Of a DNA stretch of 59,515 bases, positions 5,233-57,758 are shown one piece after another (the first letter of the stretch is position 1; each line of letters opens with the position of its first letter). Position numbers and translations under genes: made by a program. The stretch lies in assembly GCA_964500695.1 (NCBI GenBank), contig CAZCNT010000001.1:1-59515 (forward strand). Reading direction: 5' to 3'. This DNA is from an uncultured Gammaproteobacteria bacterium. Lineage in GTDB: Bacteria > Patescibacteriota > Microgenomatia > UBA8517. The notes under the pieces were generated by a model. That model was not told the DNA's origin. It did no database searches and saw only the letters and a list, made by a program, of their open reading frames with translations.

Positions 5233-5252
5233 TATTTATCGGAGCAGACCAT

Positions 5253-5276
5253 CCCACTTCGCCAAGGCTTCGCGGG
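5253..5276. repeat. intergenic copy of the 26-nt G+C-rich element (core CCCACTTCGCCAAGGCTTCGCGGG)
   Basis: Near-identical to 12331..12356 and 54213..54238. Confidence 0.85.
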
Positions 5277-5299
5277 ACAAGTCGTGGTAATATTGTTTT

Positions 5300-10244: not shown

Positions 10245-10250
10245 ATTCAA

Positions 10251-10331
10251 AACACTAAATTCTAATTAAATTCGAATTTCAAAATTACAATTATAAATTT
10301 TTTTAGAGTTTAGAAATTAGAGTTTAGAGTT
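10251..10331. repeat. cargo-less inverted heptamer arrays (AACACTA AATTCTA ATTAAAT ... TAGAGTT TAGAAAT TAGAGTT TAGAGTT)
   Basis: Lies directly after the gap stop. Homologous in layout and words to 43993..44080. Confidence 0.75.
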
Positions 10332-10340
10332 TTAAATAAT

Positions 10341-11818: not shown

Positions 11819-12788
11819 AAAATTAAAATCGATTAGAGATGGATTTGGTGAGGCACTAGTTGAATTGGGAAATAAAAATAAAAACATAGTTGTTTTAACA
11901 GCGGATTTGGCGGAATCAACTCGCGTTAAGGCATTTGCCGATAAATTTCCTGACAGATTTTTCCAGGTTGGAGTGGCCGAGCAAGGTTTGGTAACTATTG
12001 CAGCAGGAATGGCGGAAGCCGGGAAAATTCCTTTTACAACTTCATATGCGGTTTTTTCGCCGGGGCGAACCTGGGAACAGATAAAAGTTACTGCGGCGCT
12101 AAATAACGTTCCTGTGAAGATTGTAGGAGCCCACGCCGGGTTTGGCGCTTCTATGTACGGCGCAACTCATGAATCTTTGGAGGACATTGCACTCATGCGT
12201 GTAATTCCAAATATGATTGTAGTCTCACCATGTGATTATGAAGAGGCCAAAAAAGCCACTCTTGCCGTCGCAAACAATGGAAAACCAACTTATCTCAGAC
12301 TTGCAAGACAAGAGTCACCTGCAATTTCCACCCCACTTCGCCAAGGCTTCGCGGGGCAAGAATTTGAGATAGGAAAGGCAAATGTATTAATCGAAAATAA
12401 AAACCCGCGGGTACTAATTGTAGGATGTGGGTCGATTCTTTCTGAGGCAATTAACGCTTCCGGAGAACTTGAAAAAAGCGGCATCGGGTCGGTTGTTCTA
12501 AATCTACACACAGTCAAACCGATTGACGAGCAGGCTTTGACTCGTTTTGCAAAAATAACTGGTGCGGTTGTAACGGTTGAGGAACACCAGGTCATTGGGG
12601 GATTGGGCGGTGCCGTTGCTGAAGTTCTGGCTAAAAACTTTCCCGTTCCGATGGAGTTTGTAGGAGTTAAAGATTTGTTTGGTGAATCGGCAAGAGACCC
12701 CGATGAGCTTTGGAAGAAATTTGGATTAAAAAAAGAAAATATTATTGAAGCAGTTAAAAAAGTAATTGCCAGAAAAAACGACGTCTAG
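11805..12788 (+). CDS. tkt: transketolase, C-terminal subunit
   Basis: 327 aa with GVAEQ and pyrimidine-binding plus C-terminal domains. Confidence 0.9.
   Translation: MQINTKLKSIRDGFGEALVELGNKNKNIVVLTADLAESTRVKAFADKFPDRFFQVGVAEQGLVTIAAGMAEAGKIPFTTSYAVFSPGRTWEQIKVTAALNNVPVKIVGAHAGFGASMYGATHESLEDIALMRVIPNMIVVSPCDYEEAKKATLAVANNGKPTYLRLARQESPAISTPLRQGFAGQEFEIGKANVLIENKNPRVLIVGCGSILSEAINASGELEKSGIGSVVLNLHTVKPIDEQALTRFAKITGAVVTVEEHQVIGGLGGAVAEVLAKNFPVPMEFVGVKDLFGESARDPDELWKKFGLKKENIIEAVKKVIARKNDV
12331..12356. repeat. 26-nt element CCCCACTTCGCCAAGGCTTCGCGGGG inside tktC (read as PLRQGFAG)
   Basis: Identical to 54213..54238 except for one base. The core is also at 5253..5276. Confidence 0.9.
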
Positions 12789-15555: not shown

Positions 15556-16006
15556 TTAGATAACTAGATGATTGGAGATTAGTTAATTGGGGTAAAATAA
15601 ATAAATGAAAGACTTTAGGGAATTAGAAGTATGGAAAACAGGATTATCTCTCCTAATTGAAATATATAAAATTACGGCGAAATTTCCAAGATCAGAAATT
15701 TACGGATTGGTTAATCAGATTAGAAGATCCGCGAATTCTATTATAGCTAATATTGCCGAAAGTCAGGGAAGATTTAGTTTTGCTGATCGTGTTAGAGTTT
15801 TATATCTAGCCAGGGGTGAAATATTCGAAGTTCGTTCCCACTTGAGCGTAGCACATGAATTAAAGTATATTGATAAGGTAACTTTTGAAAAACTTGATAG
15901 CAGTTATGAGGTATTGGCGAAGCAAACGAGCTCTCTTATTAATTATTTAGAGAAAAGAAAACATGTCTGATCCAATTTCTAATCAACCAGTAATCCAGTT
16001 ATCTAA
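15556..16006. mobile_element. putative IR-bounded cassette 1 carrying a four-helix-bundle gene
   Basis: The arms 15556..15590 and 15972..16006 are reverse complements. The outer 10 nt are perfect and 24/35 match ungapped by hand. Confidence 0.6.
15605..15970 (+). CDS. four-helix-bundle protein (23S rRNA intervening-sequence protein family)
   Basis: Contains LEVWK...FPRSEIYGLVNQIRRSANSIIANIAES, the family signature. Confidence 0.85.
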   Translation: MKDFRELEVWKTGLSLLIEIYKITAKFPRSEIYGLVNQIRRSANSIIANIAESQGRFSFADRVRVLYLARGEIFEVRSHLSVAHELKYIDKVTFEKLDSSYEVLAKQTSSLINYLEKRKHV

Positions 16007-31871: not shown

Positions 31872-32372
31872 ATGGCTGTTTATACGAAGACAGGCGACAA
31901 AGGAAAAACGGGAACTTTTGGTGGGAAAAGGGTTTCAAAATCCTCAAAATTAATTAATACAATCGGATCGATCGACGAACTTAATTCGTTTTTAGGAATT
32001 ATCAGGGGACTTACCGAAATTCAACGAAACCTATTTGCCATAAATGCAATTTTGACGGGGGCTAAATTGAAACTTCCTTTAGATGCCACAAAAAAGTTAG
32101 AAATGGAAATCGATAAAATTGAGGGGAGTATTCCAACGCAGAAAAATTTTCTGATTTATGGCGGTACCAAAAAAGCGACCCAACTTTACTATGCCCGGGC
32201 CCTCTGCCGTCGTGCGGAACGCTCGCTTGTAGCTTTTTATCACCAATCACCAATCACTAACCACGAACCACTTGTCTATATAAATCGTCTATCCGATTAT
32301 CTTTTTATGCTGGCAAGAGCGGAAAATCACAAGGAAGGTTATAAGGAGAATTTCTGGAAAACCTCTAAATAA
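31872..32372 (+). CDS. pduO: PduO-type ATP:cob(I)alamin adenosyltransferase
   Basis: Contains YTKTGDKGKT and CRRAER...NRLSDYLF. Confidence 0.88.
   Translation: MAVYTKTGDKGKTGTFGGKRVSKSSKLINTIGSIDELNSFLGIIRGLTEIQRNLFAINAILTGAKLKLPLDATKKLEMEIDKIEGSIPTQKNFLIYGGTKKATQLYYARALCRRAERSLVAFYHQSPITNHEPLVYINRLSDYLFMLARAENHKEGYKENFWKTSK
32241..32271. repeat. heptamer array CACCAAT CACCAAT CACTAAC CACGAAC CAC translated inside pduO (HQSPITNHEPL)
   Basis: 7-nt period seen directly. Confidence 0.7.
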
Positions 32373-35033: not shown

Positions 35034-37356
35034 TGGTGTAAATTTTGGTGTGATAATTTTTTCTGCGGTAGGAATTGCCTTATTTATATTTCTGATGGTG
35101 GCCATGGGCTATCTAATTTTTGCGATGTTTAGACACAGAAAACGGGAAGAAACTTCAATCGATTCGGTTCTTCTTTCCGTGGCACTTCCCCGGAATAACG
35201 AGATAAAAATTGATGCCATGGAGCAGCTTTTCTCTTCTCTCTATTCGATTAAAAAGGGTGGTTATTGGCAAAAATTTGATATTCAACCGGCAATTTCCTT
35301 CGAAATTGTGGCGAAGCAAGAAGATATTAGGTTTTATGTCTGGGCGCCGAAGAAGCTTAAGGATTTAGTCGAAAAGCAAATTAATGGGAGTTACCCGGAT
35401 GCAGAGATTCTTGAAACAGATGAATACAACATTTTTACGAGTGACGGTAAAGTTGCTTATAAGTCTTTTCAACTGTCAAAAAGTTCCTTTTTTCCAGTAA
35501 AAACATTTAAAGATTTGGCAACCGATCCGATGGGGGGAATTACCTCGGCTTTAGCTAAAATGGGACCCGGTGAGGCTGCTGCAATTCAGGTTATAATTTC
35601 TCCCGCAGAGAACGATTGGCAAAAAGAGGGGAGCCATTTTATAAGTGATACCAAAAAACAGGAAAGCGACCCGGAAAAAGCCAAGTTTTCCACCTCTGCA
35701 AAAACTCTTGAGGCAGTAGAAAATAAAGTGGGGAAACCGGGTTTTGAAACTTCTATAAGAATTATTGCAATTTCCGACGACGAAGCCTCTGCAAAAAGCC
35801 ATGTAGCAAACATTTCAAGCGCTTTTGCTCAGTTTAACGGGGATCTAAATAATCTAAAGAGTAGGAAAATCCGTCGGAAGGGCGCTTTTATGGAAGATTT
35901 TCTTTACCGATACCTACCCATGTTTAATGTTTTTGGCAATCATCCTTCGATTCTAAATTCCGAAGAGTTGGCTACAATATTTCACTTTCCCAACAGACAG
36001 ATTACTACCCCGCATGTTTTTTGGCTTAATGCAAAAACAGCGCCTGCCCCGGCCCAAATTCCCAACGAGGGGCTTCATTTGGGGGTAAGCAGCTATCGTG
36101 GTATTAAGCGGGAGGTTTATATAGGGAATGAAGACAGAATGCGCCATATTTACATTATTGGAAAAACCGGAACCGGAAAATCGGAAATTCTTAAAGACAT
36201 GATTTTACAGGATATAAAGGACGGAAAAGGACTTTGTTTTATGGATCCGCACGGAGATGCAATTGAAGATATTCTGAAGCTAATTCCACCCGAAAGAGTA
36301 GAAGATGTAATTTATTTTAACCCCAATGATACCCAGCGCCCTATTGGAATGAACTTACTTGAAGCCAGAACCGAAGACGAGAAACATTTTGCGGCAACTA
36401 GCATTATTAATCTTATGTACAAGCTTTTTGATCCTTACAAAACCGGGATTGTAGGACCAAGATTTGAACATGGAGTTAGAAATGCCATGCTTACCGTAAT
36501 GGCAGAACCGGGAAATACGTTTGTCGAACTGATGCGCGCCATGACGGACTCCAGATATGTTCAGGAACTTCTGCCCAAGGTTACCGACCCGATTATTCGG
36601 AGATATTGGACAGATCAGATTGCGCAAACTAGCGACTTTCACAAGTCGGAGGTGTTGGATTATACGGTTTCAAAGTTTGGCCGTTTTGTTACAAATAAAT
36701 TAATCAGAAATATCATAGGGCAGCCTCAAAGCTCGTTTGATTTCAGAAAAATTATGGATGAAGGAAAAATTCTTCTTGTTAACCTGGCAAAAGGAGAATT
36801 GGGGGAGGAGAACAGTAATTTTTTGGGACTTCTTTTAGTTCCCAGGATTCTTATGGCTGCAATGAGCCGCGCAGATGTTCCGATGGAGCAGCGCCGCGAT
36901 TTTTACTTTTATGTTGATGAGTTTCAAAATTTTGCTACCCCGGATTTTGCCGTGATTCTTTCCGAAGCCAGAAAATACCGTCTTGGTCTTTGCGTTGCCA
37001 ATCAGTTTATCGGTCAGGTGGAAGATGAGGTCAAAAACGCCGTATTTGGAAATGTGGGTACAAAAATAAGTTTTAGGGTGGGTGTATCAGACGCCAATTT
37101 TTTGGCGCATGAATATGCCCCGGTTTTTGGAGAGGACGATTTACTTAATGTTGAACGTTTTCATGCTTATGTAACCACCATCGTTGACAACGAGCCGGTT
37201 CCTCCATTTTCTATGGATACGACGAAAGATATAAGTAAGATTAAAGCTATGGAAAGCCCGAGAATTGCTGAAATAATTAAGGAGATGAGCAGACTCAAGT
37301 ATGGCAGGGACGAGAGACTGGTGGAAGCTGAAATGAACCGAAGGTCTAAACTGTAA
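35023..37356 (+). CDS. VirD4/TraD-like (type IV coupling protein-like) membrane ATPase
   Basis: N-terminal TM pair, Walker A GKTGTGKSE and Walker B-like FYFYVDEFQNF. 777 aa. Confidence 0.75.
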   Translation: MYLDGVNFGVIIFSAVGIALFIFLMVAMGYLIFAMFRHRKREETSIDSVLLSVALPRNNEIKIDAMEQLFSSLYSIKKGGYWQKFDIQPAISFEIVAKQEDIRFYVWAPKKLKDLVEKQINGSYPDAEILETDEYNIFTSDGKVAYKSFQLSKSSFFPVKTFKDLATDPMGGITSALAKMGPGEAAAIQVIISPAENDWQKEGSHFISDTKKQESDPEKAKFSTSAKTLEAVENKVGKPGFETSIRIIAISDDEASAKSHVANISSAFAQFNGDLNNLKSRKIRRKGAFMEDFLYRYLPMFNVFGNHPSILNSEELATIFHFPNRQITTPHVFWLNAKTAPAPAQIPNEGLHLGVSSYRGIKREVYIGNEDRMRHIYIIGKTGTGKSEILKDMILQDIKDGKGLCFMDPHGDAIEDILKLIPPERVEDVIYFNPNDTQRPIGMNLLEARTEDEKHFAATSIINLMYKLFDPYKTGIVGPRFEHGVRNAMLTVMAEPGNTFVELMRAMTDSRYVQELLPKVTDPIIRRYWTDQIAQTSDFHKSEVLDYTVSKFGRFVTNKLIRNIIGQPQSSFDFRKIMDEGKILLVNLAKGELGEENSNFLGLLLVPRILMAAMSRADVPMEQRRDFYFYVDEFQNFATPDFAVILSEARKYRLGLCVANQFIGQVEDEVKNAVFGNVGTKISFRVGVSDANFLAHEYAPVFGEDDLLNVERFHAYVTTIVDNEPVPPFSMDTTKDISKIKAMESPRIAEIIKEMSRLKYGRDERLVEAEMNRRSKL

Positions 37357-37805
37357 GGCAAGTAATAAAAGTAAATAAAGTAATGAAGGTAATACAAGTA
37401 TGGAAAGTGGATACAAGAAGCTGATAGTTTGGCAGGAAGCTTTAAAGTTGATAGTTTTGGTTTATAGGTTAACGAAGACCTTCCCAAAATCTGAAGACTA
37501 TGCGCTAAGAGACCAAATAAGGAGAGCGGTGGTCTCGGTGTTAAGCCAGATTGCTGAAGGGTGGCTGCGTAGCTCCAAAAAAGATAAACTTCACTATCTT
37601 GAAATTTCATTAGGTTCTTTAATGGAGGTTGAGTCTCAGGCCGAAGTAGCATTAGCAGTTGGGTACTGGAATTTTAACAATCTGCAAGATTTTGAGGCTC
37701 AACGGGCCAAAGTTTGCTATCTTCTGGTAAGGTATGTTTCTAAGATTAAGTCCGGTTAGCCTTCTTATTACCTGTATTACTTCTATTACGTTTATTACTT
37801 TTTCG
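37356..37805. mobile_element. putative IR-bounded cassette 2 carrying a four-helix-bundle gene
   Basis: The arms 37360..37399 and 37760..37800 are reverse complements (30/40 by hand). They are built of 9-nt GTAAT words. Confidence 0.65.
37400..37759 (+). CDS. four-helix-bundle protein (23S rRNA IVS protein family)
   Basis: Contains LIVWQEALKL...FPKSEDYALRDQIRRAVVSVLSQIAEG. Confidence 0.85.
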   Translation: MESGYKKLIVWQEALKLIVLVYRLTKTFPKSEDYALRDQIRRAVVSVLSQIAEGWLRSSKKDKLHYLEISLGSLMEVESQAEVALAVGYWNFNNLQDFEAQRAKVCYLLVRYVSKIKSG

Positions 37806-37878: not shown

Positions 37879-37953
37879 GGGCCATTCGTTCATCGGCTAG
37901 GACGGGACTCTTATAAAGTCCAAAGGATAGTTCGACTCTATCATGGCCCACCA
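37879..37953 (+). tRNA. tRNA-Ile, anticodon UAU, CCA encoded
   Basis: Hand fold: GGGCCAT-TC-GTTC-ATCGGCTA-GGAC-G-GGACT-CTTATAA-AGTCC-AAAG-GATAG-TTCGACT-CTATC-ATGGCCC-A-CCA. U8, A14, GG, U33 and the TTCGA T-loop are all present. Confidence 0.85.
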
Positions 37954-37975
37954 AAATTTTGGTATAGCGGAGCGC

Positions 37976-38017
37976 CATAAAGTATCAAGGATGGTTCGAC
38001 TCCATCGTGATCCACCA
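37976..38017 (+). pseudogene. tRNA 3'-half relic (anticodon-loop remnant, T-arm, acceptor 3' strand, CCA)
   Basis: CATAAAGTATCAAG-GATGG-TTCGACT-CCATC-GTGATCC-A-CCA. No complementary 5' acceptor strand (GGATCAC) lies upstream. Confidence 0.6.
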
Positions 38018-38076
38018 AATTTTGACACACGTTCTAAAGAATGTGATAAACAGAGCTTGCTTCTCGAAGACTCGAA

Positions 38077-38143
38077 GTAAAGCCCAAAGGATGGCTATAG
38101 TCCTGAGCGGAGTCGAAGGATTCGACTCCATCCAGACCCACCA
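38077..38143 (+). pseudogene. tRNA 3'-half relic with a 26-nt insertion in the T-loop, CCA encoded
   Basis: GTAAAGCCCAAA-GGATGG-[CTATAGTCCTGAGCGGAGTCGAAGGA]-TTCGACT-CCATCC-AGACCC-A-CCA. The alternative 9-bp hairpin GGAGTCGAA/TTCGACTCC is possible. No 5' partner is present. Confidence 0.55.
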
Positions 38144-38147
38144 AGAG

Positions 38148-39041: not shown

Positions 39042-39923
39042 TTATAGCTCAATGAGGGTTTGTTTCTTGCCTGTCTCTGTTATTTGAGCCAGCTCCAAGT
39101 AGCGCTCGGTTGTGGAAAGACGCTTGTGACCGGAGACCTGAGAAAGAAGTACCAAGTCAACTTCATTTTTGAGATTCTCAACAATAAAAGTAGTTCTTAA
39201 GTCATTAACCGAGTAGCTGGGAAGCTCTGCCCGCTGCATATACCTGGAGATTGAAGCCCTGATGTTTCTGACCGCCAAAGGCTTACCGTTTTTGCTGATA
39301 AAAACATAGGGAGAGTCAGACTTGGGTCTGATATTCATATAAGAAACAAGGGTTTCTTGGGATGGATTGTTCAATGGAATGTTTCTTTCCGGTTGGGTGG
39401 CATAGGACTCAACTTTGAGAGAACCGTCCTTGACACCCACAGTTTTAAGATTGGCCACCTCCGAAATTCGAAGCCCCGTTTGTAGTATCAATTCAATGAT
39501 CGCCGCGATCCGAATGTCGCTTCTGACAACGTCCCTCAGTGCCCTATATTCGAGCTGAGAGAGAAACCTGGGAAGTGAGTTTTCGATTTTGGGATGGGCA
39601 ACGGATGCTGACACATCCCCGGTTATGATATTTTCGGAAATCATCCATCTGAAGAAAGTTTTAACGGCATTAAGTTTTCTACTTACCGACTTGGCTGTGT
39701 ATTTATCGGCCAAAAGAGTGTCGCGGAAGGAATCAAGATCGTCGGGTCTAACCTGTGTGGGTGTAACCTTACTCTTTTTGATCAAAAATTCCACTAACTG
39801 TTCAAGATCGCTTTTGTAGGCCAAAATAGTCGCCGGAGAGCGACTTTTAGCTTTCAACGATTCGATAAACTTAGGAAGCAGGTTTTTTATCGTAAATACG
39901 TCTTTCATTGTATCTTCTGTCAT
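39042..39923 (-). CDS. tyrosine site-specific recombinase, XerC/XerD-like
   Basis: SAM-like N-domain (TILAYKSDLEQLVEFL), then GLRISEV ... GHKRLSTTERY. Confidence 0.85.
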   Translation of the reverse strand: MTEDTMKDVFTIKNLLPKFIESLKAKSRSPATILAYKSDLEQLVEFLIKKSKVTPTQVRPDDLDSFRDTLLADKYTAKSVSRKLNAVKTFFRWMISENIITGDVSASVAHPKIENSLPRFLSQLEYRALRDVVRSDIRIAAIIELILQTGLRISEVANLKTVGVKDGSLKVESYATQPERNIPLNNPSQETLVSYMNIRPKSDSPYVFISKNGKPLAVRNIRASISRYMQRAELPSYSVNDLRTTFIVENLKNEVDLVLLSQVSGHKRLSTTERYLELAQITETGKKQTLIEL

Positions 39924-43979: not shown

Positions 43980-43992
43980 CGCACAAATACAA

Positions 43993-44080
43993 AACTCTAA
44001 TTTCTAAATCCTAATTAAATCCAAAATTGGAATTTGTAAATTAAAATTTATTTAGAGTTTAGAATTTAGGATTTAGGGTT
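43993..44080. repeat. cargo-less inverted heptamer arrays (AACTCTA ATTTCTA AATCCTA ATTAAAT ... TAGAGTT TAGAATT TAGGATT TAGGGTT)
   Basis: 7-nt period on both arms. The arms are roughly complementary when G-U pairs are allowed. Same layout as 10251..10331. Confidence 0.75.
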
Positions 44081-44115
44081 TCAGCTTTAACAAAGCTGAT
44101 GTATAATCCCTCTGT

Positions 44116-46034: not shown

Positions 46035-47000
46035 ATGGGATACAATACACTCATGTCTAAGCTGGTTATTATAGATGGTAATGCAATTCTGCACCGGGCG
46101 TTTCATGCGCTGCCTCCATTAACCACAAAGCGCGGGGAGCCGATAAATGCTGTCTATGGGCTCGTTAGTATGATCCTAAGGGTTATCACGGACCTAAAAC
46201 CAACTCATATAGCCGTAACTTTCGATGAAAGGGCTCCGACTTTTCGTCAAAAAGAACTTCCAACCTATCAAGCCCAACGTCCGCCGATGGCGGAAGATTT
46301 AGGATCGCAGTTTTCAAAAGCCCGTGAATTTTTAGCTGCGGCAAACATTTCCGTTTATTCAAAACCGGGATTTGAGGCGGATGATGTAATTGGCACCATA
46401 GCAACTAGAGCTCAGAGCCTAGAGCCTAGTAAAAAAACTAAGCTCCAAGCTCTAACCCCTAATCTCTCCGAGGTAATTATCGTCACAGGGGACAGGGATC
46501 AGCTTCAACTGGTTGATGATAAAAAGAGAATCAAACTTTACATGCCTGTTGCGGGACTAATCAATGCCAAGCTCTATGATGAAGCGGAAACGATCGAGCG
46601 AATGGGAGTTCCTCCGGTACAGATTACAGATCTGAAGGCTCTAACGGGGGATGCTTCCGATAACTACTTTGGAGTTCCCGGGATTGGGCCAAAAACGGCG
46701 ATAATCCTGCTTTCTAAATATAAATCAGTAAAAGAAATTTATGAACATCTAAACGAGATTCCGAGTAATGTTCGCGAAAAGCTTGGAAAAGGAAAAAAAT
46801 CAGCCGACCAATCATATTTTCTGGCAACAATTGTGCGTGATGTTCCGCTCGATTTAGACTTTGGGGCTATGGGAAAGTGGAATATATCAGGGCCAGAAGT
46901 GATAAAGTTGTTTGAGGAGTTTGGATTTAAGACTTTAACAAAAAGGATTCAGGAGGTAAGTAAAAAAATTGAAGAAGATAAACAAGTCAAAATGTTCTGA
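46035..47000 (+). CDS. 5'-3' exonuclease (Pol I N-terminal/FEN-like)
   Basis: Contains IIDGNAILHRAF, FEADDVIGT, TGDRDQLQL and GVPGIGPKTA. The start is either 46035 or 46053. Confidence 0.88.
   Translation: MGYNTLMSKLVIIDGNAILHRAFHALPPLTTKRGEPINAVYGLVSMILRVITDLKPTHIAVTFDERAPTFRQKELPTYQAQRPPMAEDLGSQFSKAREFLAAANISVYSKPGFEADDVIGTIATRAQSLEPSKKTKLQALTPNLSEVIIVTGDRDQLQLVDDKKRIKLYMPVAGLINAKLYDEAETIERMGVPPVQITDLKALTGDASDNYFGVPGIGPKTAIILLSKYKSVKEIYEHLNEIPSNVREKLGKGKKSADQSYFLATIVRDVPLDLDFGAMGKWNISGPEVIKLFEEFGFKTLTKRIQEVSKKIEEDKQVKMF
46405..46466. repeat. cargo-less inverted heptamer arms with A7 loop, translated in frame inside the exonuclease gene
   Basis: CTAGAGCTCAGAGCCTAGAGCCTAGT-AAAAAAA-CTAAGCTCCAAGCTCTAACCCCTAATCTC. 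Encodes RAQSLEPSKKTKLQALTPNL. Confidence 0.7.
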
Positions 47001-47017
47001 CTTATATAATATATATT

Positions 47018-48133
47018 ATGAAAGTAGCGATAGTACACGATTATTTACTAGATTATGGCGGTGCTGAAGAAGTTTTAGCCGTGTTGCACGAAACCTTTCC
47101 CGAAGCGCCGATCTACTTATCTTTATTAGATAAAAAGGGCTTAGGGAAGTTTGGACAGAAATTTGAAGGTGCAAAAATTATAACTTCATGGTTTAACAGA
47201 CTGCCATTTGCCTCAAAATTAATTTCTCCCCTAAGGTTTCTGATTCCATTGATATGGTCGAGCTTTGATTTTTCTGAATATGATGTTGTTATAACTTCCG
47301 CCAGTTGGGCAGTAACTAAAGGAATTAAAAAGGGGGAAGGAATGATTGAGATCTGTTATCTTCACACACCGCCGAGATATTTGTATGGTTACGAGACTTC
47401 GCGGAAATGGAAAGGGAAGTGGTATGGACTTTTGATTGATATTTACGCAAAAGTTGTTAATAAATTTATGCGGGCATATGATTTTCGTCAGGCGCAAAAA
47501 GTTGATTATTTTATAGCCAATTCCAAAAACGTAGGTAGGCGAATTGAAAAGTTTTATAAGCGAACCGATTATAAAGTTATCTATCCGCCGATAAACATTC
47601 CGCGTATTAAGCCAACTAATGATAAAGATAACTATTTTATAACCGGGGGAAGAATGACTGCTGCCAAAAATTTTGACTTAATTATCAAAACTTGCCAGAA
47701 GGCAAATGTTAAATTAAAGGTGTTTGGAGGAGGAGTAAGCAAGGAGTATTTAAAATCGATTGCACGGGGCGAAACGATATTTATGGGTAAAATAAATGAC
47801 CAGGAAAAAACCAGGTTAATGTTAAAAGCAAAGGCATTTATTTTAGCTCAAATTGATGAAGATTTTGGTATGACGGCACTTGAAGCGGCGGCTTGTGGTT
47901 GTCCGGCAATTGCATTTCGCGGTGGTGGGTATATTGAGTCGGTGGTAGAGGGAAAAACAGGGCTGTTTTTCGACGAACCAACAGTTGAAAGCCTGTCAGA
48001 AGCAGTTAGGAAATTCGAAAGGATGAAATTTGATCCAAAAGATTGCATTGCTCAGGCCAAAAAGTTTTCAAAGGAAAGATTCCAAACAGAAATACGCAGA
48101 TTTGTTGAGGAACGGATTCACACGGATAAATGA
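47018..48133 (+). CDS. GT4-family glycosyltransferase
   Basis: 371 aa with EDFGMTALEAAACGCPAIA. Confidence 0.8.
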   Translation: MKVAIVHDYLLDYGGAEEVLAVLHETFPEAPIYLSLLDKKGLGKFGQKFEGAKIITSWFNRLPFASKLISPLRFLIPLIWSSFDFSEYDVVITSASWAVTKGIKKGEGMIEICYLHTPPRYLYGYETSRKWKGKWYGLLIDIYAKVVNKFMRAYDFRQAQKVDYFIANSKNVGRRIEKFYKRTDYKVIYPPINIPRIKPTNDKDNYFITGGRMTAAKNFDLIIKTCQKANVKLKVFGGGVSKEYLKSIARGETIFMGKINDQEKTRLMLKAKAFILAQIDEDFGMTALEAAACGCPAIAFRGGGYIESVVEGKTGLFFDEPTVESLSEAVRKFERMKFDPKDCIAQAKKFSKERFQTEIRRFVEERIHTDK

Positions 48134-48544
48134 CGGATAAACTTCTCTATGCAGACCTGACTTATAAGGTTCGCGGAGCATTTTTTACAATTTACAACAT
48201 TCTTGGGTTTGGTCATAAAGAGATTATCTATCAAAAAGCGCTGGCTAAGGAATTAGACAAGATTGGAATAAAATATAAACGTGAACCAAGATTGAAAATT
48301 ATTTATGATGGCGATGTACTAGGAACGTACGTGCCCGACTTTTTGATTGAGGATAAAATTATTGTTGAGTTGAAATCGACCCAGTATTTCCCTCCCGACT
48401 TAGGTAAACAAATATTAAATTATCTCAAAGTAACTGGCTATAAACTTGCCTTGGCTGTGAATTTTGGACAATCCAAATTAGATATTAGACGGAGAATTCT
48501 GACCTAATAATCTGTGTGATCTGTTTTACAATCTGTGTTAATCT
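48111..48544. mobile_element. putative IR-bounded cassette carrying a GxxExxY gene
   Basis: Left arm AACGGATTCACACGGATAAATGACGGATAAAC. Right arm TAATAATCTGTGTGATCTGTTTTACAATCTGTGTTAATC. CACGGAT and ATCTGTG words are roughly complementary, about 17/25 by hand. Confidence 0.4.
48130..48507 (+). CDS. GxxExxY protein (PD-(D/E)xK nuclease-fold family)
   Basis: Contains GHKEIIY (GxxExxY) and ...PDFLIEDKIIVELK (D...E.K). 125 aa. Confidence 0.8.
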   Translation: MTDKLLYADLTYKVRGAFFTIYNILGFGHKEIIYQKALAKELDKIGIKYKREPRLKIIYDGDVLGTYVPDFLIEDKIIVELKSTQYFPPDLGKQILNYLKVTGYKLALAVNFGQSKLDIRRRILT

Positions 48545-48550
48545 TTAGTA

Positions 48551-49364: not shown

Positions 49365-50471
49365 CTACTTTTTAAATGTTGTATACAAATCGAAAAGTTT
49401 TTGAGCGGTATTTTTTGCTGAAAAACTCAAAGCGTATTCGTAGGTTTTTTGCGAAAGACTATAATAGTTTTCTTTGTTTTTTGCGATTTCACTTATCTTT
49501 TCTGCGATTTTTTTAGGATTTCTTTCGCAAATATATCCGGATTGGTTGTCAATTATCAGTTCTTCAAGACCAGAACCTTTTAAAGATATGGTAGGAATTC
49601 CTGAAGCCATAGCTTCAAGGATTGAAATCGGCATAACCTCGCTTAATGATGGTGTAATAAAAAGATGAACAGACTTGTATATTTCCGGAATAAGTTTTCT
49701 GTCAACCACTCCCGTAAAGGTTATATTATTTTCAAGTCCCAATTTAAATGTTTGATCCTGCATTTTTTGAAAAAGAAGACCCGAACCTAAAATCCAAAAT
49801 TTAAAATTGGGGATTAACTTTTTGAGCTCTCTGGCTATCTTAATCAATTCCAGAGGGTTTTTTTCTCTATCCAACCTGCCGGTATAAGCCAGTGTCAGGG
49901 GATGAAAGGGTTTTTCTTGAGGTTTATTAAAAAAGAAATCCTCGACGCCATTATTGACAATAATGGTGTTTTTAATGCCGTGTTTAATCAGTCTTTTTTC
50001 AGTGTTTGACGATGGACAAATAACCTTCTTTGATTTTTTGGAAATTTTGACTAAGTCTCTAATCAATATTTTTGAGGTCGCGTCATAACCTTTGGGAAAG
50101 TAATAATTTAAATACTGCTCATATTGTGTATGGGCAGTAAAGAAAAGAGGTTTGCCCAGCCTATCCGCTATTTGCGAAGCCGCCTGCCCGATTATTAAGG
50201 GATGGTGTGTATGGACAATATCTATTTTTAATTTTTTGATTTTTTTTGTGGGTAAGAAGGGAATTCCCATAGGATAATTTTTAATAAACGGGTTAGGCAG
50301 AGACGGATATCGGATAACATCTTTATATTGGTCTTTATATCCCGGGAACGATGGGGCAAGAATATATACTTTATGGCCAAGTTTCCTCAGAGCATCGGCT
50401 GTTGAGCTAATGTGATAAGTGACCCCGTTTGCTGTGGGAAGATAACTGGCTGTTGTGAATAGGATGTGCAT
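49365..50471 (-). CDS. GT4-family glycosyltransferase
   Basis: 368 aa with SEVMPISILEAMASGIPTI. Confidence 0.8.
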   Translation of the reverse strand: MHILFTTASYLPTANGVTYHISSTADALRKLGHKVYILAPSFPGYKDQYKDVIRYPSLPNPFIKNYPMGIPFLPTKKIKKLKIDIVHTHHPLIIGQAASQIADRLGKPLFFTAHTQYEQYLNYYFPKGYDATSKILIRDLVKISKKSKKVICPSSNTEKRLIKHGIKNTIIVNNGVEDFFFNKPQEKPFHPLTLAYTGRLDREKNPLELIKIARELKKLIPNFKFWILGSGLLFQKMQDQTFKLGLENNITFTGVVDRKLIPEIYKSVHLFITPSLSEVMPISILEAMASGIPTISLKGSGLEELIIDNQSGYICERNPKKIAEKISEIAKNKENYYSLSQKTYEYALSFSAKNTAQKLFDLYTTFKK

Positions 50472-50494
50472 TGGGGTGTATTATACTTCATGAG

Positions 50495-51634
50495 ATGATA
50501 AAAAAACTGAAACTTGTCAATTTTAGAAATTTCAAGGCCAAAACGTTGGATTTTTCCGACAAAGTTACGGTGATTGTCGGACCGAATGCCAGCGGGAAAA
50601 CTAATATTCTCGAATCTCTTTTTTTACTTTCTACCGGGAAAAGTTTTAAGGCCAGGATTGAATCGGAAACGATTCAATATTCGAGCGATATCGCTCGAAT
50701 AATAGGTAATACAAGTAATGAAAGTAGTATAAGTAATACACAATTAGAGGTGGTGCAGACGCGCGGGGAGAATGGTTGGCCGAGAAAAAAGCTTCTGGTT
50801 AACGGAGTTCCAAAGCGCTTAATTGATTTTGCAGGAAACTTTAGAACAGTTCTTTTTGGCCCTTGGGATATGGATATTGTTACAGAGAGCCCGAGCCTAA
50901 GAAGAAGGTTTTTGGATACAGTGCTATCCCAAGTTGATAGGGAATACCGACGTTCCATCCTTTCCTATGAAAAAGGATTAAGGCAAAGAAATCGGGTGCT
51001 TTGGACAATGCGGGAGTATCCGACAGGCTCTTCGGGACGCGACAAACTCCTTTTTTGGAACCAACTTCTCATTAAAAATGGGAATTATATTACAGAAGCC
51101 AGGGAAAATTTTATCGATTTTTGTAATTCTCACCAGTCACAAGTCACTAGTCACTATTCACTGGAGTACGACAGGTCCCTAATATCTGAGGGAAGACTTG
51201 AACAGTACAAAGAAGAGGAAATTGCGGCGGCCACAACACTTGTCGGTCCTCATCGTGATGATTTCATTTTTCTGAAAAGTAATACAAGTAATAAAAGTAA
51301 CACAGGTAATATAGGTAGGGAACTGGCCTCATTCGGCTCACGGGGTGAACAGAGGATGGGGATTTTGTGGCTAAAAATGGCGGAATTGGATTATATTGAG
51401 AAATGCTCTACTCTGGATTCGACTCCCTCGGCAGACCTCAGTTCGCTCACCATTCGTCGGAGCGCGGACTCACGTCCGACGCTTCTTCTCGACGATATAT
51501 TTTCGGAACTGGATCATGAACACAGGGAAGTGGTTATGCAAATCTCAAAAAAACAACAGACGATAATTACCACGGCAGACCCGCATTTTGTCAGCAATTT
51601 GAAAAAAGTGGAGAGAATTGAACTGTTGAGATAG
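50495..51634 (+). CDS. recF: DNA replication and repair protein RecF
   Basis: Contains LKLVNFRNF, GPNASGKTN and LLLDDIFSELD. Start taken at MIKKL. Confidence 0.9.
   Translation: MIKKLKLVNFRNFKAKTLDFSDKVTVIVGPNASGKTNILESLFLLSTGKSFKARIESETIQYSSDIARIIGNTSNESSISNTQLEVVQTRGENGWPRKKLLVNGVPKRLIDFAGNFRTVLFGPWDMDIVTESPSLRRRFLDTVLSQVDREYRRSILSYEKGLRQRNRVLWTMREYPTGSSGRDKLLFWNQLLIKNGNYITEARENFIDFCNSHQSQVTSHYSLEYDRSLISEGRLEQYKEEEIAAATTLVGPHRDDFIFLKSNTSNKSNTGNIGRELASFGSRGEQRMGILWLKMAELDYIEKCSTLDSTPSADLSSLTIRRSADSRPTLLLDDIFSELDHEHREVVMQISKKQQTIITTADPHFVSNLKKVERIELLR
50705..50740. repeat. 9-nt GTAAT word array in recF (GNTSNESSISNT)
   Basis: GTAATACAA GTAATGAAA GTAGTATAA GTAATACAC. Confidence 0.7.
51131..51164. 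repeat. heptamer array CACCAGT CACAAGT CACTAGT CACTATT CACTGG in recF (HQSQVTSHYSL)
   Basis: 7-nt period seen directly. Confidence 0.7.
51277..51316. repeat. 9-nt GTAAT word array in recF (SNTSNKSNTGNIG)
   Basis: Shares the exact 16-mer CAAGTAATAAAAGTAA with the cassette-2 arm (37359..37374). Shares a 19-mer with 40581..40600. Confidence 0.75.
51404..51480. repeat. G+C-rich in-frame insert in recF containing a T-arm-like GGATTCGACTCC and hairpin CGTCGGA...TCCGACG
   Basis: Encodes CSTLDSTPSADLSSLTIRRSADSRP immediately before the conserved LLLDD. GGATTCGACTCC also occurs at 38118..38129. Confidence 0.55.
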
Positions 51635-51637
51635 AAT

Positions 51638-51958
51638 ATGGATATGGTGGCGACGGAACATGATATAACTCTGACGGAAGCAGAGAAAAGTTTTGAAATG
51701 GATTTAAGGGAATTGTCGCCTGACGTGCGTAGTAGGTATGATTGCCTTTATCTGGATGTAAGATTGAAACAGGCCAAAAAGAATTATGGAAAACCGGCAG
51801 GACATATGTCTCTTGAAAAAAGACAGGAGCTTATACTGATAGCAAAGACTACCGAGAGTGACGAAGAGGCAAAGAGAGCTCTTGATATGCAAGAATCTTG
51901 GGACAGAGCAACTTCGAGGGAGGGGCGACCACCCATAGCCGGAGCACGAGAAGATTAA
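51638..51958 (+). CDS. hypothetical protein
   Basis: 106-aa charged helical ORF between recF and fic. Confidence 0.5.
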   Translation: MDMVATEHDITLTEAEKSFEMDLRELSPDVRSRYDCLYLDVRLKQAKKNYGKPAGHMSLEKRQELILIAKTTESDEEAKRALDMQESWDRATSREGRPPIAGARED

Positions 51959-53343: not shown

Positions 53344-55032
53344 ATGCAATTTAGCGAGCTCGCTTTATATCTTGAAAAGCTTGAAAAAACCTCCTCCAGG
53401 CTTGAAATTACAAGGATTTTATCGGAACTTTTTGAGGCGACAACTTCTGCTGAAGTTGATAAGATAGTTTATTTATCTCTTGGTATTTTGGCGCCGAATT
53501 ATGAGGGGGTTTTATTAAATTTGGCCGAGAAAATGATGATCAGAACTCTCGCTCTGGCGTTTAATAAAAGCGCAGACGAGGTAAAAAGCCTTTACAAAAA
53601 ATCAGGTGACTTGGGAGATACCGCAGAGGAGCTTTCACAATCCACAGTTCACCCTTCACAGTTCACAGTTACTGATGTCTATGAAAAACTTTTGGATATT
53701 GCCAAGGACAACGGAGAGGGATCGCAGGAGCGGAAAATTGAAATGACGAGTAGTCTTCTTAAAAATCTGGATTCTCTCTCAGTGCGGTTCGTTGCCAGAA
53801 TTCCGGTTGGGAAACTTAGGTTAGGTTTCTCAGAAAAAACAATAATAGAAGCACTAGGAATTTCTGATACGGAATATAATATTTATCCTGATATTGGTCA
53901 TATTGCATATCTTACAAAAACTAATAATTTAAAAAATATAAAACCAAAAATTGGTGTACCTGTTGTCCCAATGCTTGCAGCCAGACTTAATTCAACGACT
54001 GAGATGGTTGCCAAAATGGGACAAGTATCAGTAGAACCTAAATTTGATGGATTAAGAATCTTTATACATTTTAAACGCAAAGATAATATCGTAAAAATCT
54101 TTACGAGAAACATGAACTCAATTCCTCTGGAAACTTTTCCGGAACTTCTCGGTGTCGGTAAATTTATAAAAGCAGAGGAGGTTATTCTTGATAGTGAAGC
54201 AATAGGGATTGACCCCACTTCGCCAAGGCTTCGTGGGGCTGGTGTGTTTTTGGATTTCCAAAAAACAATTCAAAGAAGAAGAAAGCACAATATAAAAAAA
54301 ACCGCCGGCGAAATTCCGCTGCAATTTCAGATTTTTGACGTACTTCTTCTCAACGGCAAAAGTTTGATTAACGAACCGTATATTAATAGGCGCATGGAGC
54401 TTGAAAAGATTATTATTGGTGGAAGTTTACTTCGGGTTGATGAGAACACCGTTACAAAAGACCCTGAAATTATTAAGGAAATGCACAAAAAATACTTAAA
54501 GATGGGACTTGAGGGGGTTGTTGTTAAAAAAGCTAATGGAAAATATGTATCAGGCAGAACCGGCTGGAATTGGGTCAAGATGAAAGAGGAGGAAGGTCAG
54601 AGCGGTAGACTCTCTGACACTCTAGATTGCATTGTAATGGGCTATTTTACAGGGAAGGGTAAAAGGGCACAGTTTGGACTGGGTAAAATTTTAGTAGGCA
54701 TCAAAGATGGAGATGTTATACGCACATTAACCAAAGTGGGCACTGGTTTAACAGAGGCTATGCTTGTTGAGATTAAAAACAGACTTAATAAATTACAATC
54801 AAAGGAAAAACCAAAAGAATATGAAGCCCAAAAAGACTTAATTCCTGATGTTTGGGCAATACCTAGCTTAGTGATTGAAGTAACGGCTGACAGTATATCA
54901 AAAAGTACAAAACATTCACTAGGGCTTTCCCTTCGTTTTCCAAGGTTTTTAAAAATAAGGGAAGATAAAGGAGTAAACGAAGCAACAACACTAAAGGAGT
55001 TAAAAGCGATAGCTAAGACGCAAAAAAAATGA
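53344..55032 (+). CDS. lig: ATP-dependent DNA ligase
   Basis: EPKFDGLR (KxDG adenylation motif). 562 aa with DNA-binding, adenylation and OB-domain layout. Confidence 0.88.
   Translation: MQFSELALYLEKLEKTSSRLEITRILSELFEATTSAEVDKIVYLSLGILAPNYEGVLLNLAEKMMIRTLALAFNKSADEVKSLYKKSGDLGDTAEELSQSTVHPSQFTVTDVYEKLLDIAKDNGEGSQERKIEMTSSLLKNLDSLSVRFVARIPVGKLRLGFSEKTIIEALGISDTEYNIYPDIGHIAYLTKTNNLKNIKPKIGVPVVPMLAARLNSTTEMVAKMGQVSVEPKFDGLRIFIHFKRKDNIVKIFTRNMNSIPLETFPELLGVGKFIKAEEVILDSEAIGIDPTSPRLRGAGVFLDFQKTIQRRRKHNIKKTAGEIPLQFQIFDVLLLNGKSLINEPYINRRMELEKIIIGGSLLRVDENTVTKDPEIIKEMHKKYLKMGLEGVVVKKANGKYVSGRTGWNWVKMKEEEGQSGRLSDTLDCIVMGYFTGKGKRAQFGLGKILVGIKDGDVIRTLTKVGTGLTEAMLVEIKNRLNKLQSKEKPKEYEAQKDLIPDVWAIPSLVIEVTADSISKSTKHSLGLSLRFPRFLKIREDKGVNEATTLKELKAIAKTQKK
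53636..53672. repeat. heptamer array CACAATC CACAGTT CACCCTT CACAGTT CACAGTT AC in the ligase gene (QSTVHPSQFTVT)
   Basis: 7-nt period seen directly. Confidence 0.7.
54213..54238. repeat. 26-nt element CCCCACTTCGCCAAGGCTTCGTGGGG inside the ligase gene (read as PTSPRLRG)
   Basis: One mismatch relative to 12331..12356. Read in a different frame. Confidence 0.9.
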
Positions 55033-56836: not shown

Positions 56837-57286
56837 GTTAGCTATTAGCTACTAGCTACTAGAGCTTAGAGCCTAGTTATATTAGAATTTGTTTGTGGCG
56901 ACGATTAAGTGCTTTGAGGATCTTTTGGTTTGGCAAAAAGCTAGAGTGCTAGTTAAGAGAATTTACAGCATAACTTCTTCTTTTCCTTGTGAGGAAAAAT
57001 TTGGCCTAATTGATCAGATTCGTCGTGCAGTCGTATCTATTATGGCAAATGTTGCCGAGGGATTTTCGCGCTATCGGATAGCTGAGACGGTTATGTTTTA
57101 TCGAACAGCAAGAGGGTCCCTATCTGAGGTTAAAAATCATTTGTATATTGCATTAGATTTAGGCTATATTAATAGCACTGAATTTAAAAAACTTGTGGAA
57201 ACAATAGATGAAATTGGGAAAATGCTAAATGGTTTGATAAATTCAACTGAGAATTATAGAAAAACTAAGCTCTAGGCTCTAATGAC
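56837..57286. mobile_element. putative IR-bounded cassette 3 carrying a four-helix-bundle gene
   Basis: Left arm heptamers GTTAGCT ATTAGCT ACTAGCT ACTAGAG CTTAGAG CCTAGTT. Right arm AACTAAGCTCTAGGCTCTAATGAC. The core is 18/21 complementary by hand. Confidence 0.6.
56889..57275 (+). CDS. four-helix-bundle protein (23S rRNA IVS protein family)
   Basis: Contains LLVWQKARVL...FPCEEKFGLIDQIRRAVVSIMANVAEG. The start is non-ATG (TTG 56889 or GTG 56895). Confidence 0.8.
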   Translation: MFVATIKCFEDLLVWQKARVLVKRIYSITSSFPCEEKFGLIDQIRRAVVSIMANVAEGFSRYRIAETVMFYRTARGSLSEVKNHLYIALDLGYINSTEFKKLVETIDEIGKMLNGLINSTENYRKTKL

Positions 57287-57758
57287 TATGAAACTTATAA
57301 TTGGGTTGGGAAATCCCGGAAAGGATTACGAGAACACCCGTCACAATGTCGGTTATATGATAGTGGACAGATTTAGGAAGATTGGTCTTTCGAAAGGTGT
57401 AATGGTGAAAAAATCGGATGTTTTTATGAACAGCTCGGGAGAATTTGTTAAGAAAATTACTGAGCTCTATCCTCTAAGCTCTAATAGCTTATATATTGTT
57501 CACGATGATCTTGATATCCCTCTTGGATCATACAAAATCCAGTTTGGGCGGGGGCCGAAAGACCATAACGGTTTAAAATCGGTTGATGAAGCCTTGGGAA
57601 CGGATCAATATTGGCATGTGAGGGTGGGGATAGAGAATAGAGCTCAGAGCTCAGAGGTTAGTGGATACGACTATGTTCTCCAAAATTTTAGCGATGAAGA
57701 AAGAATAATTTTGAAAATGGTTGTACAAGAGGTATGCCACAAACTTGACAACATATAA
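57282..57758 (+). CDS. pth: peptidyl-tRNA hydrolase
   Basis: Contains GLGNPGKDYENTRHNVG and VHDDLD...HNGLKS. Confidence 0.9.
   Translation: MTMKLIIGLGNPGKDYENTRHNVGYMIVDRFRKIGLSKGVMVKKSDVFMNSSGEFVKKITELYPLSSNSLYIVHDDLDIPLGSYKIQFGRGPKDHNGLKSVDEALGTDQYWHVRVGIENRAQSSEVSGYDYVLQNFSDEERIILKMVVQEVCHKLDNI
57461..57490. repeat. AGCTC-word patch inside pth (TELYPLSSNS)
   Basis: TGAGCTCTATCCTCTAAGCTCTAATAGCTT. Same word family as the cassette-3 arms. Confidence 0.45.
57636..57664. repeat. heptamer patch TAGAGCT CAGAGCT CAGAGGT TAGTGG inside pth (RAQSSEVS)
   Basis: Shares TAGAGCTCAGAGC with 46406..46418. Confidence 0.5.

Follow-up and report, generated by a model that had tools for sequence, protein, structure and literature searches.

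Four in-frame patches, probably of tolerated repeat DNA, in predicted loops of a Patescibacteria recF gene

How a core repair gene can hold four patches of array-like or GC-rich DNA and stay in frame is the question raised by recF in contig CAZCNT010000001.1 of assembly GCA_964500695.1, which was deposited for an uncultured Gammaproteobacteria bacterium and carries the GTDB lineage Patescibacteriota, Microgenomatia, UBA8517. The stretch analysed, called the window below, comprises positions 1 to 59,515 of this contig, and all coordinates refer to its forward strand unless another strand is named. A first-pass annotation had described the patches and ascribed them to repeated invasion or slippage-driven remodelling of loop regions. 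The comparisons reported here favour, with moderate confidence, the view that repeat DNA akin to the terminal repeats of intervening sequences (IVSs) makes up the patches, is tolerated and was spread by templated copying and recombination; the patches would not be adaptations of RecF.

The recF gene and its patches

The recF coding sequence (CDS; 50495-51634) codes for 379 amino acids from an ATG at 50495; in the list of open reading frames (ORFs) it starts at a TTG at 50471. In a profile search its product scored above the TIGR00611 equivalog cutoff (246.2 bits against 172), and the best matches in the Protein Data Bank were 5z67, 5z68 and 5z69 (E=1e-32), with 2o5v also found. The Walker A (GPNASGKT), signature (SRGEQR) and Walker B (LLLDD) motifs are intact and were invariant in an alignment of 46 orthologues. 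An AlphaFold (AF2) model built from 46 orthologues, with a mean predicted local distance difference test score (pLDDT) of 68, superposed on 5z67, 5z69 and 2o5v with template modelling (TM) scores of 0.72-0.77 (0.75 to 5Z67). As judged from its sequence and this model, the gene is a functional-looking RecF orthologue. The closest named relatives of its product belong to Patescibacteria (Woesebacteria, Gottesmanbacteria and other Microgenomates-like metagenome-assembled genomes), and the contigs closest to the locus come from groundwater metagenomes.

All four patches lie in frame within recF where the first-pass annotation had placed them, three as arrays detected by Tandem Repeats Finder (TRF) and one as a GC-rich segment. 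Patch 1 (50705-50740; GNTSNESSISNT) consists of about four GTAAT(AC)-N2 units with a period of 9, delimited by TRF to 50706-50738 with 3.7 copies and 75% matches. Patch 2 (51130-51164; SHQSQVTSHYSL) is an array of about five (G)TCAC heptamers, quasi-palindromic at 79%, for which TRF gave period 7, 4.7 copies and 88% matches over 51130-51162. Patch 3 (51278-51313) is a clean block of four 9-nt GTAAT units (TRF: 51277-51311, period 9, 3.9 copies, 80% matches) placed before native GGT-AGG-GAA; the native GGTARRRRA beside it resembles an array unit, and no target-site duplication is visible at the junction. Patches 1 and 3 are direct arrays with neither terminal inverted repeats nor defined ends. 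Between the signature helix and the Walker B strand, patch 4 (51404-51480) contains a GC-rich insertion of 19 codons (57 nt; CSTLDSTPSADLSSLTIRRSADS). The GC content of this patch is 0.57-0.62 over 60 nt at a time; that of the whole window is ~0.40.

When compared with RecF of T. tengcongensis (5Z67), patch 3 stood opposite a gap of 11 residues and patch 4 opposite one of 19. Relative to the nearest insert-free orthologues (336-340 aa), patches 1, 2, 3 and 4 add 6, 0, 11 and 19 aa, respectively. Patches 3 and 4 are thus net insertions of the sizes first estimated, whereas of the two patches that had been taken as length-neutral only patch 2 is so. All four map to predicted loops of the model: patch 1 to the loop of a beta hairpin, patch 2 to the loop following helix 180-212, patch 3 to the coil immediately upstream of the signature motif, and patch 4 to the coil joining the signature helix and the Walker B strand. 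Residues 265-272 and 308-325 have a pLDDT below 50.

Two further structures, overlooked in the first-pass annotation, abut patch 1. A 9-bp perfect stem with a GAAA loop (ATTGAATCG gaaa CGATTCAAT; 50657-50678) encodes IESETIQ, and a perfect palindrome of 24 nt with the halves TATTCGAGCGAT and ATCGCTCGAATA (50678-50701) encodes YSSDIARI directly upstream of the patch.

Recurrence of the patches in relatives

Three other assemblies (L001-L003) carry patch 1 in exactly the form that it has in the window. Patches 2 and 3 recur in L003 with one or two substitutions, and patch 4 is present in L003 with one substitution and in L002 and L001 in a shortened or altered form; it is also common to P0001-5 and P0007, with a short form in P0040, P0060 and P0096. 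As independent assemblies carry the patches, an assembly chimera or a sequencing artefact is very unlikely, and its probability can be put close to nil. Repeats can mislead assemblers and nothing else speaks for such an origin, whereas the same patches are found in assemblies from different samples, related versions occur in more distant relatives, and the frame and all RecF motifs are intact.

The copy numbers of the arrays were unchanged among relatives, for all three arrays in one 96% identical and for patch 1 in those 82-84% identical, and the recF frame was always open where arrays are shared with close relatives. Because copy numbers are the same in close relatives, the recF arrays do not behave as phase-variable contingency repeats, for which strain-variable copy numbers and frame shifts would be expected. 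The recF alleles of close strains (L001, L002 and L003) are mosaics in which 100%-identical blocks alternate with blocks of ~70-75% identity. The block edges of the mosaic include one immediately 3' of patch 1 and one immediately 3' of patch 3, and patches 2 and 3 change jointly with their flanks.

Among 120 recF orthologues (60-96% identity), the four sites are variably filled or empty. The proteins range from 331 to 398 aa, with nearly all the variation at these sites, and an insert-free state of 336-340 aa exists among them. The fills are unrelated between lineages and comprise S/N/T/G/I peptides of the GTAAT type, "FKI" peptides of the AAATTC type, GC-rich P/G/S/R stretches and palindromic peptides that mirror DNA hairpins; in DNA they are again word arrays or hairpins, including a complete in-frame array hairpin in L086 recF. 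When TRF was run on 79 recF genes, the arrays of Patescibacteria clustered at reference residues 64-90, 208-224 and 254-276, and the Chloroflexi genes gave only weak, scattered two-copy matches. On a neighbour-joining (NJ) tree of the masked backbone the insert types were scattered almost at random; the GTAAT type at site 3, found in 8 taxa, required 7 steps against a permutation mean of 7.8. The four loops are hot spots of indels and rewriting across lineages. The core of the inference first drawn, loop regions remodelled by repeated invasion or slippage-like change with some cases neutral in length, is borne out; simple unit-by-unit slippage is not, as the array periods below make clear.

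Shared patches show higher DNA conservation than the remainder of the gene. For patch 4 the identity with P0004 and P0005 is 84-89%, compared with 66-69% for the gene overall, and for the palindrome plus patch 1 the identity with P0008 is 87-93%, compared with 67% for the backbone. The 20-nt core of the palindrome (TTCGAGCGATATCGCTCGAA) is exact in P0001-3 and P0008, the last with a backbone only 67% identical, and among 209 loci it was found in recF only. P0008 also retains a 7-bp version of the stem at 50657, with a double change from T-A to G-C. The first-pass annotation had held that patches conserved as protein but not as DNA would speak for ordinary low-complexity loops, and the pattern found is the reverse.

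Period 7 was the commonest both among 189 arrays in 975 kb of Patescibacteria DNA (96/189) and among those within ORFs (58/116). Simple unit-by-unit slippage cannot explain in-frame arrays with periods of 7 and 8 nt, in which a single-unit change would shift the frame. The 54 genes of the window contain 10 5-mers exactly repeated three times at periods of 7-9 nt, against 1.4 +/- 1.1 after synonymous codon shuffling, an enrichment of ~7-fold; recF alone accounts for three of the 10.

Word families and IVS-like cassettes

GTAAT-N4-GTAAT-N4-GTAAT with at most two mismatches gave 11 matches in the window against 0.17 expected, and, bar one stray match with two mismatches, GTAAT arrays of period 9 are confined to recF (twice) and to both flanks of an ORF at 37400-37759. 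This ORF encodes a 23S_rRNA_IVP protein (S23p, four-helix-bundle, bAvd-like; PF05635, E=2e-32). Together with a GTAAT 9-nt array at 37353-37403 and an inverted GTAAT array at 37761-37800, it forms an IVS-like cassette (37353-37800) whose arms belong to the word family of patches 1 and 3. Four TCAC-N3 units in tandem gave 6 matches against 0.02 expected, in three genes. Besides patch 2, heptamer arrays of this family lie within the gene for cobalamin adenosyltransferase (32240-32271) and within that for an ATP-dependent DNA ligase (53635-53666; SQSTVHPSQFTV), where the array adds 2 aa relative to orthologues. As word arrays, patches 1-3 belong to multi-copy dispersed families shared with the arms of IVS-like cassettes or with housekeeping genes.

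Word arrays also flank other small genes. A second IVS-like cassette (56838-57282) consists of inverted TAGAGCT heptamer arrays around an S23p/IVP gene (56889-57275). L086 lacks it, having at the syntenic position a 14-nt spacer free of arrays. A third IVP gene (15605-15970; cassette 15575-16005) is likewise bracketed by word arrays, as is a GxxExxY/PDDEXK_3 gene at 48130-48507, and each of these cassettes has its own word. The GxxExxY (PD-(D/E)XK) gene shares sequence with the stop codon of the glycosyltransferase gene upstream, which it overlaps, and is followed by a AATCTGTG word array; from its sequence, the whole (48130-48550) appears to be another small type of cassette with array flanks.

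In a survey of 88 loci, inverted word-array flanks scoring at least 30 were found at 8 of 13 IVP genes and at 1 of 641 control ORFs. Arrays not adjacent to an IVP gene were denser in loci with such a gene (3.75 per 10 kb) than in those without one (1.59; p=0.013), and the density varied between genomes from 0 to ~10 per 10 kb (L004-L087, the 975 kb), so that array load is strongly genome-specific. IVP proteins with GTAAT-type arms were no closer to each other than to other IVPs; covariation between word and protein was not seen. The 20 window ORFs scanned yielded neither a transposase nor a reverse transcriptase.

In-frame arrays occur in unrelated genes of the window (recF, ligase, cobalamin adenosyltransferase, pth and exonuclease), and the make-up of the words, a conserved core with a variable spacer, is alike in coding and non-coding copies. 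Words of the AGAGCT type are present in pth, and a 5'-3' exonuclease gene contains them, at 46398-46455, as a complete array hairpin that is in frame. The IVP cassette with TAGAGCT arms stands directly upstream of pth, which contains the word family twice (57452-57489 and 57630-57662), and in the Pth orthologue of L085 the same loop contains an expansion of (DR)n. Several genomes have dispersed word families of their own: in L013 one word family (AATAGGACA) occupies five loci, recF site 1 included, and L017 has a dispersed word family of its own (AAGGCACA).

Two intergenic elements without ORFs (10235-10332 and 43984-44081), 76% alike, consist of an AAATTCT-type heptamer array followed by an inverted array (TTTAGAG), and in sequence look like empty versions of the IVP cassettes. 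A GC-rich repeat of 33 nt (CCACCCCACTTCGCCAAGGCTTCGCGGGGCAAG) occurs at 5249-5281, 12328-12360 and 54210-54242, two of the copies lying in genes. In the DNA ligase gene it forms an insertion of 6 aa (PTSPRLRGAG), shared with L086 but not with L085 or L087, and in P0023 RecF site 1 is occupied by a peptide (LRQGFAGQ) that matches the repeat when translated in a different frame. This repeat points to a possible second, GC-rich kind of in-frame dispersed element.

Patch 4 and its hairpin

Patch 4 is part of a 16-bp interrupted hairpin (51454-51495), in which its 3' half (TCGTCG-GAGCG-CGGAC) pairs with the native codons for RPTLLLDD (GTCCG-CGCTT-CGACGA). The CGTCGGA/TCCGACG hairpin of the first-pass annotation is present as part of this longer structure. 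In five variants 91% of the cells were paired, with two compensatory pairs, both between synonymous codons (AGC/ACG against AGT/ACA, and CGG/CTC against CGA/CTT); the covariation was not significant, 66/500 shuffles being as good, and five sequences are too few for it. P0003 and P0060 carry a different 9-bp arm (GAGAGTGGG), the exact or near complement of their own CCC-ACT-CTC (P-T-L) codons. In all, three versions of the arm are each complementary to the synonymous codons of their own lineage. Fold-back copying or quasi-palindrome correction would be expected to leave an arm that follows the adjacent synonymous codons in this way (PMC3820800, PMC6357072), the alternative being selection for a hairpin. 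The predicted RNA fold of the patch was no better than that of shuffles (z=-1.15). In L086 recF, which lacks patch 4, the native codons CGT CCA ACA CTG CTG TTG GAC (~1240-1275) form a perfect 9-bp hairpin alone, which suggests that the Walker-B region tends to be palindromic in several lineages.

No other copy of patch 4 was found in the window or in the 209 fetched loci, and it forms no multi-copy family there. A metagenome scan with its core (TTCGCTCACCATYCGYSG) gave at least 119 matches, with no similarity beyond the 18-mer in those inspected; among the matches listed, all but one were in contigs with a GC content of ~0.5 or more, and the scan was uninformative. A protein search with the four open frames of the patch concatenated gave 8 candidates, the sole match being a RecF fragment, which is a weak negative. 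The patch, first called foreign, thus has no other copy in the sequences searched, and its 3' half is an inverted copy of the native codons beside it.

The resemblance to a tRNA relic is weak. The 12-mer GGATTCGACTCC does occur both in patch 4 (51415-51426) and at 38118-38129, as the first-pass annotation had noted, and the match extends to 21 of 23 positions with one gap in the relic of a tRNA 3' end. The best match of the patch in the window (38118-38138, score 30) was equalled by 2% of shuffles, and the tRNA-like segment is not conserved in P0004 or P0005. A tRNA-relic origin was rejected, and the shared 12-mer is probably a coincidence. The likeness of patch 4 to a GC-rich D7 repeat (TTCGC...TTCG), ~62% over 26 nt by eye, was too weak to be retained.

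Genomic setting

Ordinary core genes fill the window, among them genes for glycolysis enzymes, an aminoacyl-tRNA synthetase, FtsH, Fpg, DNA ligase and Pth. There is no rRNA gene in the window and the cassettes are intergenic. In an Rfam scan of the window only tRNA reached the gathering score, with no match in 50400-51700. A tRNA-Ile gene has two additional copies of a tRNA 3' end after it (37995-38018 and 38121-38144, in the region 37879-38144), and a minus-strand ORF (39042-39923) resembles a tyrosine recombinase by eye. Taken together, the 3' end copies and the recombinase-like ORF look like the outcome of successive integrations at the tRNA.

Proposed origin of the patches

In the scheme favoured here, patches 1-3 belong to genome-wide families of short, imperfect word arrays with a near-palindromic core and 2-4 variable bases, a period of 7-9 nt and ~4-5 units. 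Such arrays are typical of this Microgenomates lineage and in the same genome also form the inverted terminal arms of S23p/IVP or GxxExxY cassettes, ORF-less hairpins and segments of housekeeping-gene loops. They would arise and spread through templated copying (template switching or short-tract gene conversion), mainly at close range and on the same strand, which could add blocks of units or overwrite neighbouring sequence length-neutrally. Homologous recombination between strains would then move patch-bearing segments among recF alleles. Only in-frame, stop-free copies would survive, in loops that tolerate extra residues, and this would be why the same four loops are hit repeatedly in different lineages. 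The patches would be neutral for RecF, and a causal link with the S23p cassettes may lie behind the shared words. Patch 4 would be a separate event, a 57-nt GC-rich insertion with a 3' half that is a fold-back (inverted) copy of the adjacent RPTLLLDD codons, its hairpin being kept complementary through quasi-palindrome correction or selection.

Several observations bear on the copying step. Words are shared more between arrays at two loops of the same recF gene than between genomes (mean score 24.2 against 11.8; p=0.04), and 14% of arrays, against 2% of controls, have a direct partner 120-700 nt away. An inverted partner was found for only 4-5%, on which ground the idea that most arrays are collapsed hairpin elements was rejected. 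In L087 the array at site 2 changes the conserved LEY to LLY, and in L086 that at site 1 replaces the ELARVTG strand, in both cases with no change in length. Clean insertions and overwriting of conserved codons are thus both seen, in line with the earlier argument that length-neutral cases speak against insertion alone. Word sharing, direct partners, overwriting, block insertion and allele mosaics point to templated copying of blocks followed by recombination between alleles, and footprints of the kind left by template switching can be recognized in the arm of patch 4, the 24-nt palindrome and the length-neutral overwriting by arrays.

The descriptive findings (anatomy, family membership, hot spots, loop location, excess DNA conservation, recombination mosaic and cassette architecture) are well supported; the copying mechanism, the neutrality of the patches and a causal role of the S23p cassettes are inferences. 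A number of points weigh against this scheme. Template switching is something we infer from such patterns and not from direct evidence. The 96%- and 84%-identical relatives do not differ in copy number, which means that the process is not a fast one. The NJ tree used for the homoplasy test has poor resolution, and recombination confounds it. IVP genes and array density are only modestly associated, on the basis of 20-kb samples. For ~90% of arrays no inverted partner is detectable, so that what ties the arrays to IVS arms is a sharing of word families and not of structure. The membership of patch 4 in any family is unproven. Hairpins in the CDSs of the window (16, against 10.6 +/- 3.5) are not significantly enriched, and a genome-wide palindrome-making process is not demonstrated. 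Finally, the excess DNA conservation and the compensatory hairpin could mean selection on RNA or DNA structure.

The patches might instead have come by a transposition-type invasion, as copies or solo arms of small non-autonomous elements, either IVS-derived or like Rickettsia palindromic elements (RPEs) or MITEs (miniature transposable elements with inverted repeats), inserted by an enzyme encoded elsewhere and surviving where they fell in frame in loops. This would fit the identity of the patch word families with those of IVP cassette arms, the presence or absence of cassettes at syntenic sites, the scatter of insert types over the RecF tree, patch DNA that looks younger than the backbone, the clean four-unit block of patch 3 and the complete in-frame array hairpins in the exonuclease gene and in L086 recF, and RPEs provide a precedent for in-frame insertion (PMC10969869). 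It is nevertheless unlikely: patches 1 and 3 are purely direct arrays flanked by no terminal inverted repeats or target-site duplications, insertion does not account for conserved codons being overwritten at unchanged length, the window ORFs tested yielded neither a transposase nor a reverse transcriptase, the units differ at their variable positions and are not copies of one master sequence, and the similarity of IVP proteins does not track the arm word. Clearly less likely is that the word arrays are the active module of IVS/S23p-type elements, a single system that builds cassette stems and writes arrays into coding loops by templated copying; there, pentameric Avd-like S23p might recognise 4-5 tandem words, together with a polymerase or a recombinase. 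If this were true, IVS elements would be a general in-frame agent of gene remodelling in Patescibacteria and not an rRNA curiosity.

Only a slim chance is left to selected nucleic-acid structures, with the hairpins and arrays of recF as putative RNA or DNA signals (RNase III sites, attenuators or platforms for S23p) that regulate the gene or its mRNA. The hairpin at 51454-51495, kept in five variants with two compensatory pairs and a second sequence version, the stem at 50657 with its compensatory change in P0008, the palindrome perfectly conserved against a 67% backbone and the core and spacer pattern common to coding and non-coding words would all agree with it, as would the ~4-5 units per array in view of S23p being a homopentamer (PMC4990558). 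However, the covariation is not significant, the fold of patch 4 does not exceed that of shuffles, no Rfam match was obtained, many orthologues have no patch and others have unrelated sequences at the same sites, and the IVP sequence does not co-vary with the word. Slimmer still is the case for ordinary low-complexity loops, that is, Ser/Asn/Thr-rich linkers produced by codon-level slippage and kept or tolerated as protein. Their location in low-confidence loops of the model, their S/N/T/G-rich peptides and the in-frame 9-nt periods are what such linkers would show, but this explanation is largely refuted by the period 7 of patch 2 and its dominance among in-ORF arrays over the 975 kb, by the same words in non-coding cassette arms, by DNA conservation above that expected from the protein and by the ~7-fold enrichment of arrays over synonymous shuffling.

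Core genes of repair, glycolysis and translation in Patescibacteria undergo repeated remodelling by specific repeat DNA, and four loops of a single gene have been struck independently in many lineages. Such patches interfere with alignments, trees, quality filters based on length and predicted structures where proteins of the candidate phyla radiation (CPR) are concerned, and can pass for "foreign" insertions or misassemblies. They are linked to the poorly understood, selfish IVS/S23p cassettes, including those with the Coxiella heptamer repeats, and offer a sequence-level handle on template switching and short-tract conversion in uncultivated bacteria. The dominance of a 7-nt period within ORFs is unusual and constrains any mechanism that is proposed.

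Comparison with known systems

In their behaviour, the patches appear closest to RPEs, and also to the terminal repeats of IVSs. Like RPEs and intragenic MITEs, they are short multi-copy DNA lying in frame in unrelated housekeeping genes, at sites compatible with the fold (PMC10969869). RPEs, however, are palindromic elements of ~150 bp, in families with a consensus that encodes a conserved peptide, whereas the recF patches measure 33-75 nt and consist for the most part of 7-9 nt words in direct arrays, with spacers that vary and no defined ends, and the arrays sometimes overwrite native codons length-neutrally. The palindromes or terminal inverted repeats and the defined ends of RPEs and MITEs are missing from patches 1 and 3, and patch 2 is quasi-palindromic.

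The arrays also resemble the amino acid tandem repeats (aaTRs) of Borgs, genome-specific tandem repeats found between genes and in frame within ORFs, in which they give rise to disordered stretches (PMC9879509). In Borgs the repeats are essentially perfect, unique to each locus and, within ORFs, always of unit lengths divisible by three; the arrays described here have 75-88% matches, share words between loci and most commonly have period 7 in ORFs, and do not qualify as such repeats. Quasi-palindrome or template-switch mutagenesis would give a 24-nt palindrome, an arm that mirrors neighbouring codons as in patch 4, and clustered length-neutral changes; it is known from E. coli and yeast reporters, and not as a phylum-wide shaper of loops in housekeeping proteins. 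Of the components of diversity-generating retroelements (DGRs), which combine a template/variable repeat pair differing at adenines with a nearby reverse transcriptase, no reverse transcriptase was found among the 20 window ORFs scanned; only bAvd-like IVP genes were seen.

Cyanobacteria reportedly contain short tandemly repeated heptamers (STRRs) and small dispersed repeats (Mazel et al. 1990; Elhai et al. 2008). These are alike in their heptamer tandem arrays and in very small dispersed repeats tied to hairpins, and differ in being described mainly outside genes and in a different phylum. They are not known to be connected with IVP cassettes or with copies lying in frame within housekeeping genes. 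In the literature consulted, no report was found of arrays such as those of recF inside protein-coding genes, nor anything specific on in-frame repeats in CPR genomes.

The IVS of Coxiella consists of an S23p ORF with 28-bp terminal inverted repeats and strain-variable tandem heptamer repeats, and is excised by RNase III (PMC4990558); IVP ORFs also occur in rRNA insertions of CPR bacteria (PMC11270868). The cassettes of the window share this anatomy, a four-helix-bundle ORF between terminal inverted repeats, but are located between protein-coding genes and not in rRNA. Those at 37353-37800, 56838-57282 and 15575-16005 have an S23p (PF05635) gene between inverted repeats, whereas the recF patches are translated and lack both an ORF and an inverted partner. 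The cassettes and the Coxiella IVS also agree in their terminal repeats, the arms of the cassettes being arrays with a period of 7-9 nt and the Coxiella IVS carrying tandem heptamers in its terminus.

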